Assembly (NCBI RefSeq): GCF_053078305.1
Contig: NZ_CP166879.1
Length of the DNA: 64,000 bases
Strand: one strand, 5' to 3'
Both the position numbers and the translations under genes were made by a program. The notes beneath the pieces are model-generated. The model saw only the letters and a list, made by a program, of their open reading frames with translations, was not told where the DNA came from and searched no databases. Shown here one piece after another: positions 37,541-42,670 of the stretch (position 1 is its first letter; the number at the start of each line of letters is the position of its first letter).

Positions 37541-38314
37541 TTAACGAACGCTCTGTCCGGTTATTTCAACCCTGCGGTTGGGGCGCAGACATTCCTTCAG
37601 TGCTTCGCCCTCCACATCCGGGCAGAACACCACTGGTGCATCATATCCACGGCCCGTTGCATGTATCCTTTCAGCCCTGAATCCCCGGGCAATAAACCAC
37701 CCCCTGACTGATTCCGCCCGTTTCTCTGACAGGAGCCGGTTATACGCCTGCCCGCCAAGATGGTCCGTAAATCCTTCTATCTTCACCCCGACAACATGAC
37801 CCGCCTGAAACTTCTCTGCCACACGGGAAAGTGCATCACGCCCCCTCTCTGTCAGAGTCCATGAATCAAAATCAAATAATATATCACCGGGGACTGACTC
37901 CCTGTATTCTGCTGTCTCTGCCTCCGGCAGACAGTTTTCCGGCTTCCAGTAGAAAGAGCGGGCATCCATGTTCCGGTCAAACAGTATCTTGTACTGGCAG
38001 GTATAATCCCCCTCCGGTCCGGTAAAGTTGAACAGGTAATCCCATTCCCTTACACCAGACATCCCTTCAGCAAAGTGTGGTCTCCCCGCCAGCTGATAAA
38101 TCTGGTCCTTATTCATACCCGCCTTTATCTGACGTAACTTTTCTGGCAGTGGCCACGAACCTTTCTGTGTTCCGTCATGATTAAACTTCACCTTCTCCGG
38201 AGAAGGCCATACCACTTCTTCCGTCGTTCCTTCATCCGTGACATGACTCAGATTTCCACATCCTGCAAGCATCAGGGACAGCACACCCGTCATCATCATT
38301 CGACTAAATAACAT
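37541..38314 (-). CDS. OmpA-family peptidoglycan-binding lipoprotein
   Basis: 257 aa; lipobox LAGC; C-terminal OmpA-like domain (NRLLSEKRAESV). Confidence 0.75.
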   Translation of the reverse strand: MLFSRMMMTGVLSLMLAGCGNLSHVTDEGTTEEVVWPSPEKVKFNHDGTQKGSWPLPEKLRQIKAGMNKDQIYQLAGRPHFAEGMSGVREWDYLFNFTGPEGDYTCQYKILFDRNMDARSFYWKPENCLPEAETAEYRESVPGDILFDFDSWTLTERGRDALSRVAEKFQAGHVVGVKIEGFTDHLGGQAYNRLLSEKRAESVRGWFIARGFRAERIHATGRGYDAPVVFCPDVEGEALKECLRPNRRVEITGQSVR

Positions 38315-38338
38315 TACATTTCTCCTTGCTTTTCCCTG

Positions 38339-41300: not shown

Positions 41301-42670
41301 GAAATCTCCAGTTTATCTCCAGCCACCTGGGTTTTTATTGGGCCTTTGCCAGTGATTTCGACATTGTCACCAAGACTCTTCGTCAGCGTCTTACCATCTC
41401 CACCTTTAATTTTGATGGCATCATTTTTTATTTCATTTTTCAGCGTTGTTCCGTCAATCGTCATTCCTTTATCATTAACAGTAACTGCAATATCTCCATC
41501 ACCTTTAACAGTTAAAGTGTTACCATTCTTATTATCCTTCCCACCATTAATAGTCGCAGAACCTCCCTTATCATCCTTTAGCGTCCACGTCGGATTAATG
41601 GCATCAAGGTCATCTTTCAGTGTCTTCGCTATCGCATATAACTGACTACCGTTAATGGCATCTGTACTTGTGTCAGAAATCGCACCCGCCCCCACGTTAA
41701 CAATCTGACGCTCTTTACCCGCATCACCAACAGATACTACTGATGCTGCGTTATTTCCGGCAAAGCCACTATATGTGACTTCCGCGCCTCTTTTAGTTCT
41801 GACCTTAGCCTCTGTTACTTTTTGTGCCTGCTTATCCCTGGAGTCAGCGCCGATGGACACGTTCCCCTTTGCGACAGTAACGGTTGCTCCATGCCCCAGG
41901 GCAACCGTTTCATTCTGAGCGGCATTTGCCTCTGAACCAACAGCAAGAGCATCGTTTTTATTTGCAGAGGACTGACTACCAACGGCCAGAGCATTACCGG
42001 CATTAGCCAGCGCATTAAAACCAACCGCAGTCGCCATATCCCCTTTAGCTTCCGCCGTGGCTCCAATTGCATTCGAGGCCATCCCCTCAGCAGAACTCAC
42101 CGAACCAAGCGATACTGACAATTCGCCTTTAGCAAAAGTTCTGCTGCCCAGCGCAATACTGCCATCCCCCTGCGCTTCCGATGCAAGATAGCCATTCTCT
42201 ATTTTTTCCCGACCATAAGTCTTACCATGCAAAGGAGTTAAATCATCCCCACCAATAACAATAGCCCCCCATCCGGTAGCTTTGGTATCGCCACCTATTG
42301 CAATTGACTGTTCTTTAGTTGCTTTCGTTTTCGCTCCTATCGCAATAGACTCGCCTGTGTACAAACCTTCCTTCGTGCTAATGTCACCTCCAGCCTCTGC
42401 ACTGGTACCAATCGCGATAGAGTTACGTCCTTCAGCCACCGGTGATTTATGGTCGAAATTAATTCCCTTTGATTCATCTTTTGCTGTAAATTTCGTTGTA
42501 CCTATTTCAATGCTCTTCCAGTCATCGCCATAGACATCATGGCCAAGGCTGGTTTCATCAACTTCAACAGTTAACTTATTTGTATCTGCCTGAGCACTGA
42601 CCTGTGATATGGATGCCGGATTAAGAACAAGTGATATGGCTATACAGATATGTTTTTTTCTGAGGTTCAT
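38339..42670 (-). CDS. large trimeric autotransporter adhesin (YadA family; UpaG/EhaG/SadA-like)
   Basis: Extended signal peptide MNLRKKHICIAISLVLNPASISQVSAQA with RBS gaggg; repetitive head/stalk; C-terminal YadA anchor ending ...GAGVGWQW (the ORF extends to 42703). Confidence 0.85.
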   Translation of the reverse strand: MNLRKKHICIAISLVLNPASISQVSAQADTNKLTVEVDETSLGHDVYGDDWKSIEIGTTKFTAKDESKGINFDHKSPVAEGRNSIAIGTSAEAGGDISTKEGLYTGESIAIGAKTKATKEQSIAIGGDTKATGWGAIVIGGDDLTPLHGKTYGREKIENGYLASEAQGDGSIALGSRTFAKGELSVSLGSVSSAEGMASNAIGATAEAKGDMATAVGFNALANAGNALAVGSQSSANKNDALAVGSEANAAQNETVALGHGATVTVAKGNVSIGADSRDKQAQKVTEAKVRTKRGAEVTYSGFAGNNAASVVSVGDAGKERQIVNVGAGAISDTSTDAINGSQLYAIAKTLKDDLDAINPTWTLKDDKGGSATINGGKDNKNGNTLTVKGDGDIAVTVNDKGMTIDGTTLKNEIKNDAIKIKGGDGKTLTKSLGDNVEITGKGPIKTQVAGDKLEISAETASLPVNGGNGKITVNNGDGDKLVTAKNIADAINQSGWKIKADKDTGGVIEGNGQGTETLIKPGDMVTLKAGKNLSVKQSGGDFTFSVIDTPSFSSVQLNGKGNNGSVTLSSEGNKLTLSGGNGAGQNGVVISGVASGLEGKELSTLTNTDKEMKNAASVADLKTAIDGVSSSMQGAGFALKDSDDKEVKQSLGQAIKVSGDSNITTTAITNGDKGLKISLNNDLSVGSNNTPGSIKVNGADGKEAVSLNGQDGTIKLTSSPAAGGKSASATIAVNAGKGGLTDAAGTTKTRLTYTPDGKSPAEELATMNDGLSFEGDDGKVIHKKLNEKLTIKGGAEKNAEVTDGNIRVDNDNGGLLVRMTRNLRDLASAVFGTGGQITTVNDKGITITTPAAGGGQGNTVSLTGSGLNNGGNQITSVASGLNGTALADAGGDVLNNAANIGDLKNALRDSSAALVNTGFGLQADDGSKVNTSLGKHITVGGDGQNISTTVQNGSLTVRLADNIRLGDDGSVSVGGTRMDKNGLTIKDGPSVTVNGIDAAGRVISGVKDGVNDQDAVNVSQLNREISQATAATTWALKTESGDEAVAVSSQTVEVRHGQNTRVSAISKDDKGNYSYEIDVTGIPVEYTDSQGNPLVNIGGRFYTQTEDAATGKLTMTPAEPARVRISSEQPLVLTNVAAGNVSPVSTDAVNGSQLASAARIAGGDNVVWKDGKAALAPDTFSELTTAGGGKTTVNGGVHKTPDNVADAVNMLNREGTKYFKAASSGQAAKAEGRDSIAVGQGAVSRGQNSIAMGNGAEVTRQAAAGSVAVGSHARAGRANTGTYALNGQAVAGRTGSDTAVVSFGQPGQERQLQSVAPGVLSANSTDAVNGSQLHATNRQVAGNTQAINTLGNKFSQLSYRVEELNRDIRGVGASAAAMSGIPQAYLPGKSLMGLGVGGYGGESAIAIGVSRISDNGKMIMKLNAGQNTRGNFSVGAGVGWQW

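Follow-up and report, generated by a model that had tools for sequence, protein, structure and literature searches.

A Sab-variant trimeric autotransporter adhesin and its downstream TpgA-family lipoprotein as a probable barrel-to-peptidoglycan clamp in Escherichia coli

Introduction

Trimeric autotransporter adhesins (TAAs) can be encoded together with a dedicated partner protein. In the TAA-TpgA cassette, a protein composed of a BamE-like domain and an OmpA_C domain is encoded directly downstream of the taa gene (PMC12523085). The present report deals with a two-gene locus within a 64,000-nucleotide (nt) stretch of DNA (contig NZ_CP166879.1 of NCBI RefSeq assembly GCF_053078305.1), designated the window throughout, in which a TAA gene is followed by the gene of a lipoprotein with an OmpA-like domain. 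An earlier note on this DNA had suggested that the lipoprotein might be a distinct accessory or anchoring factor of the adhesin.

The architecture of TpgA has been known since 2016, and a co-crystal structure with a TAA barrel became available in 2025 (PDB 9VNJ; PMC12523085). Acinetobacter sp. Tol 5 transcribes the TpgA gene together with ataA; the protein binds both AtaA and peptidoglycan, and surface AtaA falls without TpgA. Pull-downs place the contact at TpgA's N-terminal domain (TpgA-N) and the membrane anchor of AtaA, and in the 2.6-Å structure three copies of TpgA-N occupy the periplasmic side of the trimeric AtaA barrel (3:3). There the TpgA residues K64/D65 are paired with D3601/K3576 of AtaA, and a hydrophobic tip is made up of L80/F81; the exchanges K64A and F81A weaken AtaA binding, and no other barrel proteins co-purify (PMC12523085). 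Steered simulations suggested that bound TpgA-N alone raises the force needed for barrel extraction. TpgA-like proteins cluster apart from BamE, with Escherichia among the named genera, and approximately 80% of the cluster possess the OmpA_C domain and 91% are encoded downstream of a taa gene (PMC12523085). A 2026 preprint reports 644 TpgA homologues adjacent to TAAs in Gamma- and Betaproteobacteria, of which some consist of the BamE-like domain only (bioRxiv 10.64898/2026.01.22.700529).

A different type of helper is represented by SadB of Salmonella, a lipoprotein encoded in one operon with the TAA SadA that raises the surface display of the latter. The earlier note had set such helpers apart as encoded upstream and free of OmpA domains, and this description holds: SadB is upstream-encoded, contains neither a BamE nor an OmpA domain, and is a trimeric inner-membrane lipoprotein without similarity to TpgA. 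The window lipoprotein shares none of these properties, and its identity as a SadB-type helper was rejected on gene order (downstream) and domains (BamE plus OmpA).

We present here a comparative analysis which makes it highly probable that the locus encodes a variant of the adhesin Sab together with a lipidated, PlpD-like lipoprotein of the TpgA family that serves as a clamp between the adhesin barrel and peptidoglycan. The suggestion of a distinct factor is borne out in so far as the lipoprotein is apparently a dedicated partner unlike SadB; it is not an undescribed one, as the TAA-TpgA cassette has been published. The locus adds one more case to a two-gene cassette already described, and the helper that it encodes is of no new kind.

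Organization of the two-gene locus

The earlier note had reported a YadA-family adhesin of 1443 amino acids (aa) followed by an OmpA-family lipoprotein, and both open reading frames (ORFs) were recovered on the minus strand, the TAA gene at 38339..42670 and the lipoprotein gene, which codes for 257 aa comprising a BamE-like N-terminal domain (N-domain) and an OmpA_C-like domain, at 37541..38314. The ATG start of the TAA gene yields the 1443-aa protein and was also chosen by RefSeq in E. coli loci of 98% identity; an alternative in-frame GTG at 42703 would extend the product to 1454 aa. As in the TpgA cassettes, the partner gene lies directly downstream of the TAA gene on the same strand. The spacer, given as 25 bp before, measures 24 nt (38315..38338) and carries an AAGGAGA ribosome-binding site by direct reading. 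A terminator scan detected no minus-strand terminator-like site between the two genes. The only convincing minus-strand terminator of the region, a strong one, ends the two-gene unit (37500..37530), in agreement with the terminator assigned to the lipoprotein gene before; it starts 10 nt past the lipoprotein stop codon and consists of a 9-bp hairpin with seven GC pairs (AGCCCCGGA-ATG-TCCGGGGCT) followed by TTTTTTGTGC, the hairpin and its TTTTTT run occupying 37530..37510. Because the spacer is devoid of a terminator, co-transcription of the two genes is implied, and they probably constitute one operon. The AT-rich intergenic region between ireA and the TAA gene (42671..43343, minus strand) presumably contains the promoter and regulatory elements; a promoter scan upstream of the TAA gene returned weak sigma-70-like matches only, not above the expectation from shuffled sequences. 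On the minus strand the TAA operon is bordered directly upstream by ireA (43344..45479), which codes for a siderophore receptor, and directly downstream by a truncated transposase of the IS3 family of insertion sequences (IS) at 36565..36951.

The adhesin as a variant of Sab

The TAA contains the Pfam domains YadA_head (E 4.3e-17), YadA_stalk (E 4.2e-30), and YadA_anchor (E 5.9e-19; residues 1383-1443), that is, the head repeats, stalk, and C-terminal YadA-type anchor by which type Vc TAAs are recognized. The anchor, encoded at 38342..38524 (minus strand) and delimited by Pfam and a search of PDB sequences, is a Hia-like four-strand barrel segment: among PDB sequences it matches best the Hia anchor (E 3e-18) and, at a lower level of similarity, the AtaA membrane domain of 9vnj_A (E 9e-6). 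The corresponding ORF of E. coli STEC1590 is labelled 'YadA-like family protein' by RefSeq.

A more informative name is provided by plasmid pO113-EH41. Its homologous TAA gene bears the annotation sab ('autotransporter adhesin Sab'), and an 'OmpA family protein' is encoded 24 nt beyond it, so that the layout, a TAA gene and then the homologous lipoprotein gene, is the same as in the window. PMC6024878 summarises Sab as an adhesin of E. coli strains producing Shiga toxin (STEC) and as contributing to adherence to HEp-2 cells and to biofilm formation. The window TAA and the pO113-EH41 Sab are 81% identical over their full length and 99.2% identical over the last 493 residues (951-1443), while the N-terminal passenger with the head shares only 53% identity, which is why the window TAA is best called a Sab variant. 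The partner proteins differ in a similarly uneven manner, the lipoprotein N-domains being 98.4% identical and the OmpA domains 56%, with that of the window shorter by 10 residues. The genomic settings differ as well: the window copy is chromosomal and located between ireA on one side and the IS3 remnant and a type I secretion adhesin locus on the other, whereas the sab gene of pO113 is plasmid-borne and located upstream of ehxCABD. Saa, the other TAA of pO113, was considered as a candidate homologue and dropped; the pO113 annotation names the homologous gene sab.

The lipoprotein as a distant member of the TpgA family

The lipoprotein starts with a signal peptide and lipobox (MLFSRMMMTGVLSLMLAG-C19; 38258..38314, minus strand), in which the motif L-A-G-C19 is followed by Gly at position +2 and Asn at position +3. 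In view of the absence of Asp at position +2, the protein is expected, by the established Lol rule, to be sorted to the outer membrane. A full-length alignment of 78 homologues (the sample is defined below) retains C19, K69, and both cysteine pairs, 106/128 and 231/242, in at least 90% of its sequences. The protein is encoded by an intact ORF that shows 99-100% conservation across a 572-member sequence cluster and at least 29 complete-genome records.

The decisive part for function, which the earlier note had missed, although its OmpA-like domain was correctly recognized (Pfam OmpA, residues 146-228, E 1.9e-16), is the N-domain (residues 20-128, core 57-124; 37931..38257, minus strand), a predicted TAA-barrel-binding module similar to TpgA-N. 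The best full-length match of the lipoprotein in NCBIfam is NF047726 (E 1e-34, residues 4-252 of 257), which bears the full name 'trimeric autotransporter adhesin/peptidoglycan-associated protein TpgA'. Pfam places residues 54-115 in PF04355 (BamE; E 2.7e-14). When the isolated N-domain was compared with PDB sequences by phmmer, TpgA-N (9vnj_B) was retrieved with E 1.1e-11 and the best BamE with E 0.02, a difference of approximately nine orders of magnitude. An AlphaFold model of the N-domain alone (pLDDT 86.7), prepared separately because fold searches with the whole protein were dominated by matches of the OmpA domain, shows a core of alpha-alpha-beta-beta-beta type and has 9vnj_B as its top PDB match (TM-score 0.81, root-mean-square deviation 2.5 Å, 27% identity in the structural alignment), compared to TM-scores of 0.59-0.70 for BamE chains. 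Both sequence and fold thus group the N-domain with TpgA-N and not with BamE. BamE (SmpA/OmlA), a subunit of the β-barrel assembly machinery (BAM), is likewise an outer-membrane lipoprotein with a small alpha-alpha-beta-beta-beta fold, but is a single-domain protein, whereas the window lipoprotein carries an additional OmpA domain; moreover, TpgA diverges in the regions by which BamE binds BamA and BamD (PMC12523085). The possibility of a true BamE paralogue was rejected, sequence and structural similarity to BamE (E at least 0.02, TM-score at most 0.70) being far weaker than to TpgA-N.

The OmpA_C-like domain (residues 146-252; 37559..37879, minus strand), delimited by Pfam, PDB matches, and modelling, matches the C-domains of OmpA proteins in the PDB (E 2e-18), and its model superposes on the Salmonella OmpA C-domain with a TM-score of 0.90 and a root-mean-square deviation of 1.4 Å. 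It is most similar to the enterobacterial OmpA C-domain, including the pair Cys231/Cys242. The 78-sequence alignment shows no variation at D184 and R199, which correspond to the 'TD...LS..RA' positions in peptidoglycan binders of the OmpA type, so that the domain carries the peptidoglycan-binding motif expected of a TpgA protein. Homologous lipoprotein genes are variously annotated in RefSeq and PLSDB as 'OmpA family protein', 'bamE', or 'outer membrane protein assembly factor BamE', and frameshifted or IS-truncated copies appear as separate BamE and OmpA calls; a TpgA-like label was absent from the RefSeq and PLSDB annotations of homologous loci that we looked at.

Compared with AtaA-TpgA of Acinetobacter sp. 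Tol 5 and Ata-TpgA of A. baumannii, the lipoprotein shares the BamE-like N-domain and the OmpA_C-like domain and, with respect to AtaA-TpgA, the Lys/Asp pairs on partner and TAA anchor as well as the peptidoglycan-binding Asp and Arg. It differs by being lipidated at Cys19, as predicted from the lipobox LAGC: the TpgA-N proteins of the Acinetobacter lineage, checked on short BamE-only proteins found with the 71-residue crystallised TpgA fragment as query, possess plain Sec signal peptides without a lipobox, and the simulation literature treats TpgA as a soluble periplasmic protein. In the lineage that comprises the proteins of E. coli, Pasteurellaceae, Neisseria, and Betaproteobacteria, a lipobox cysteine is present in at least 90%. 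A soluble state, in which the protein is held at the outer membrane solely via the TAA, does not apply to the window lipoprotein.

The BamE-like fold raises the question of whether the lipoprotein is mainly a transient assembly factor, acting like BamE in barrel insertion by BAM, trimerisation, or passage of the passenger, instead of a permanent anchor. Such a role would agree with the Pfam assignment and with the TM-scores to BamE, with the finding that loss of TpgA lowers surface AtaA, which was interpreted as a secretion defect (bioRxiv 10.64898/2026.01.22.700529), and with the lack of an OmpA domain in approximately half of the family, by which anchoring to peptidoglycan is not a universal function. 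On the other hand, the homologous complex is stable through purification and crystallises as a 3:3 hexamer, TpgA-N does not conserve the parts of BamE that bind BamA and BamD, and other barrels do not co-purify (PMC12523085); in addition, the window N-domain is only marginally similar to true BamE and its OmpA domain retains the invariant peptidoglycan-binding residues. We therefore regard an exclusive or main role in assembly as unlikely, with the reservation that assembly and anchoring are compatible and not mutually exclusive.

Contact residues and allele co-variation

The numbering of the 9VNJ crystal structure was transferred to the window proteins via HMMER alignments. K64/D65 of TpgA correspond to K69/D70 of the lipoprotein and L80/F81 to M85/S86, while K3576/D3601 of AtaA correspond to K1390 (in PGK) and D1415 (in DNG) of the TAA and W3605/I3607 to M1419/M1421. 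Hence the electrostatic pairs are intact on both proteins, and the hydrophobic tip reads Met-Ser instead of Leu-Phe, opposite Met/Met instead of Trp/Ile. The second TAA of the window (see below) served as an internal control: it has neither the Asp of the DNG motif nor a TpgA-like gene downstream, which fits the published observation that the TAA Asp tracks with possession of a TpgA partner (PMC12523085).

The window and pO113 alleles differ at two positions of the lipoprotein N-domain and at two of the last 200 TAA residues, and in each protein one of the two falls on a contact position: S86 (codon 38057..38059) and M1419 (codon 38414..38416) of the window are Phe and Val, respectively, in the pO113 pair. 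Nine E. coli alleles show the combinations (tip residues/TAA residue) LF/V, MF/V, MS/V (one strain), MS/M (four), and IA/L (two). This looks like compensation between tip and TAA residue, although the independent events are few and the pattern is not a statistical one. The alleles of the window and pO113 are also mosaic, since the nearly identical segment formed by the last 493 TAA residues and the lipoprotein N-domain is flanked by the strongly divergent head and OmpA domain. In our interpretation of these alignments, the conserved block corresponds to a pair of interacting modules, which recombination would have kept together while flanking parts were swapped. Together, co-variation and preservation of the block lead to the tentative suggestion, which we do not rate as probable, that partner specificity is encoded at a small contact interface.

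The serine at the tip leads to a further explanation, namely that the partner encoded in the window has been weakened or is decaying, the change from Phe to Ser having reduced or abolished binding and left the gene as a relaxed remnant. Counted in alignment columns, which replaced crude regular-expression motif calls on 150 representatives, the tip position is aromatic in 39 of 54 TAA-linked loci of other species and in all 22 unlinked ones, and Ser occurs in none of the 78; F81A lowered complex formation in Acinetobacter (PMC12523085), and IS debris is present on the island. A remnant is nevertheless hard to reconcile with the intact and conserved ORF and the intact electrostatic pair. Furthermore, most Ser86 alleles carry Met in place of Val at the partner position of the TAA, the single Ser/Val allele being a possible intermediate, and an aromatic residue is missing from other linked members too (Ala, Val, or a gap in Betaproteobacteria; Ile-Ala in the 76% class of E. 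coli described below). We consider decay improbable and favour a functional pair. The remaining columns show that the contact residues are widely kept: in linked loci Lys is found in 47/54, Asp in 47/54, and Leu in 38/54, in unlinked homologues the values are 22/22, 19/22, and 21/22, and the contact Asp on the TAA side is present in 53 of the 54 linked loci.

Linkage in E. coli and in other species

Co-occurrence of the two genes, named in the earlier note as a check of a functional relationship, was surveyed at two levels, and at both it was found to be the rule. The 5.9-kb region is E. coli DNA and matches 86 of 5426 complete genomes, being chromosomal in some and located on conjugative STEC plasmids in most. 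The closest chromosomal copy has the same order as the window: ireA, TAA, lipoprotein, IS3 remnant, type I secretion adhesin locus. The lipoprotein gene itself was found in 96/5426 genomes and falls into three classes of about 99%, 81%, and 76% DNA identity, whose N-domains are 73-98% identical; the first lies behind the window-type TAA, the second behind sab on pO113-type plasmids, and the third behind a different YadA-like protein of 1145 aa. A 626-nt probe that comprises anchor, spacer, and N-domain was covered to at least 80% in 98 of 100 matching E. coli records, and the only exceptions to linkage seen in E. coli are due to IS-mediated truncation of one gene or the other. The cassette is situated beside ireA in a few E. 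coli chromosomes and beside ehxCABD on STEC plasmids. Its occurrence in both chromosomal and plasmid settings argues that it is mobile.

For other species, a phmmer search with the N-domain alone returned 523 representative clusters (50% identity) in two length groups of 125-190 aa and 250-300 aa, and about half of the family members, for example in Neisseria, lack the OmpA domain. Scanning one genome per species with a pattern yielded 422 relatives, of which the best 79 loci were analysed and 78 were evaluable. TAAs at these loci were detected with a hidden Markov model (HMM) bootstrapped from the anchors of Sab, Hia, AtaA, and YadA. In 54 of the 78 loci a YadA anchor was present at the end of an ORF, on the same strand and 77-270 nt upstream of the mature N-domain; Pfam confirmed YadA_anchor in 55/55 linked C-termini, that of the window included. 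In two further loci the anchor was 2.5 or 9.5 kb away, and the remaining 22, 21 from Pasteurellaceae and one from Rhodanobacter, had no TAA anchor. Adjacency was observed in Neisseria, Alcaligenaceae, Burkholderia, Xanthomonadales-type genera, several Pasteurellaceae, and Acinetobacter in varied genomic settings. Spirabiliibacterium, Testudinibacter, Chelonobacter, and P. testudinis possess two to three TAA-linked copies each.

The unlinked Pasteurellaceae proteins are named PlpD or Plp4 by database sources where they are closest to the window lipoprotein. They share with it the BamE plus OmpA architecture, the 'CGNLS' lipobox region, and the Lys-Asp and hydrophobic-aromatic motifs, but are longer, with a C-terminal tail ending in '...GPAPLY..', and usually stand alone in housekeeping neighbourhoods: between recJ and a HAD hydrolase gene in Mannheimia and Actinobacillus and next to a Peptidase_S49 gene in P. 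multocida; a relative in Pelistega adjoins dsbA. No TAA was detected within 8-10 kb of the PlpD/Plp4-type loci inspected, and the literature searched contained no report of a TAA-linked function for PlpD/Plp4 or of a connection to TpgA. In a neighbour-joining tree of the N-domains, a simple distance tree of approximately 110 columns without support values whose topology is only indicative, the lineages outside Pasteurellaceae (Acinetobacter TpgA, Betaproteobacteria, Neisseria, and the E. coli clade) are all TAA-linked except for the single Rhodanobacter locus, and the unlinked proteins are nested among linked Pasteurellaceae (Spirabiliibacterium, Testudinibacter, Chelonobacter, Volucribacter, Rodentibacter, A. 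segnis). We read the unlinked state as derived, with a probable loss of linkage and not of function. PlpD/Plp4 might then act in trans on Hia-type anchors. A more comprehensive proposal, which we put forward tentatively and would not rate as probable, unites the proteins of E. coli, Neisseria, Pasteurellaceae, and Betaproteobacteria in a lipidated TpgA branch, in which PlpD/Plp4 of the Pasteurellaceae would be unlinked partners of Hia-type TAA anchors encoded elsewhere in the genome.

These data also bear on an explanation in which the lipoprotein is a general envelope tether resembling PlpD/Plp4 or Pal, and its adjacency to a TAA in E. coli merely reflects co-transfer on a mobile island. The core-like nature of the closest full-length homologues outside E. 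coli, the 22/78 loci without a TAA, and the IS remnants flanking the locus would fit this view. The adjacency, however, persists across distant genera whose genomic settings vary widely, each of the three divergent E. coli classes lies behind a TAA of its own, contact residues are kept on both proteins, and anchor and N-domain are preserved as a block while the OmpA domain was exchanged; the nesting of the unlinked clade within linked ones points in the same direction. A general tether is accordingly judged very improbable. The earlier note had taken wide occurrence of the lipoprotein without an adjacent autotransporter as a sign of unrelated function. Such occurrence is real for PlpD/Plp4, but concerns what appears to be a derived, nested subclade with retained contact residues, and in E. 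coli the pair is almost never separated.

Proposed mechanism and points against it

On the basis of these comparisons, the lipoprotein would be exported by the Sec pathway, lipidated at Cys19, and then located at the inner leaflet of the outer membrane, as expected from its sorting signal. Its BamE-like N-domain would dock on the periplasmic rim of the 12-stranded adhesin barrel, one copy per chain (3:3), by contacts of Lys69/Asp70 with Asp1415/Lys1390 and of the tip Met85/Ser86 with Met1419/Met1421; this docking model follows from homology to the AtaA-TpgA crystal structure. The OmpA-like domain is predicted to bind peptidoglycan non-covalently via Asp184/Arg199, in view of the invariance of these residues and of the OmpA fold. 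The outcome would be a bridge from adhesin via partner to cell wall, by which more adhesin could be displayed and which could make the barrel resistant to extraction from the membrane under a pull on the fibre of approximately 1400 residues. The two genes of the cassette probably travel together on STEC plasmids and chromosomal islands.

Several points weigh against this mechanism. Its experimental basis is the homologous AtaA-TpgA pair, and the window pair is known from sequence and models. The score of the lipoprotein for NF047726, 119.9 bits, is far under the equivalog cutoff of 350 bits, and because of this the protein is a distant member of the TpgA family and not an equivalog of Acinetobacter TpgA. 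Its closest full-length relatives outside E. coli are the Pasteurellaceae lipoproteins (46-50% identity), and a TAA-independent role of the PlpD/Plp4 clade is conceivable. The aromatic tip residue equivalent to F81 of TpgA is lost, Ser86 taking its place beside the hydrophobic M85, and the window allele may bind more weakly unless Met1419 compensates. Finally, no link between Sab and TpgA was found in the literature searched, and Sab was reported to be functional when cloned in E. coli JM109 (summarised in PMC6024878), in a clone that may or may not include the downstream gene. Weighing these points against the domain, contact-residue, and linkage evidence, we retain the clamp as the favoured explanation.

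Other features of the window

The second TAA gene (20301..21527, minus strand) codes for 408 aa with a YadA_head domain and a YadA/Eib-type anchor ('...GYRFNEQ...VGVNWEF'), and small LuxR-like ORFs are located downstream of it. The type I secretion adhesin locus (21770..35883, minus strand) encodes a 642-aa RTX-repeat protein, an HlyD adaptor, an ABC permease/ATPase, and a TolC-family protein, and also a 2357-aa protein with 18 GA-like domain repeats (23798..30871). The GA-like repeats cause a strong GC and AT skew at 24-30 kb, and a long antisense ORF on the plus strand (24794..30328) is probably a by-product of repeat composition.

Implications

The analysis reveals no new kind of system and its practical value is modest. 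It does name a function for a gene that RefSeq calls 'OmpA family protein' or, wrongly, 'BamE', and that adjoins sab on many plasmids of STEC negative for the enterocyte effacement locus (LEE). It predicts that the display of Sab and its resistance to shear depend on the downstream lipoprotein gene, a dependence which, if true, would be relevant whenever sab is cloned or scored as a virulence marker. For PlpD/Plp4, vaccine-candidate lipoproteins of the Pasteurellaceae, a testable function is offered. Most of the TpgA family would be lipidated, unlike the soluble prototype used in structural and simulation work, and this lipidated subfamily, the possible trans role of PlpD/Plp4, and the co-varying interface appear worth following.

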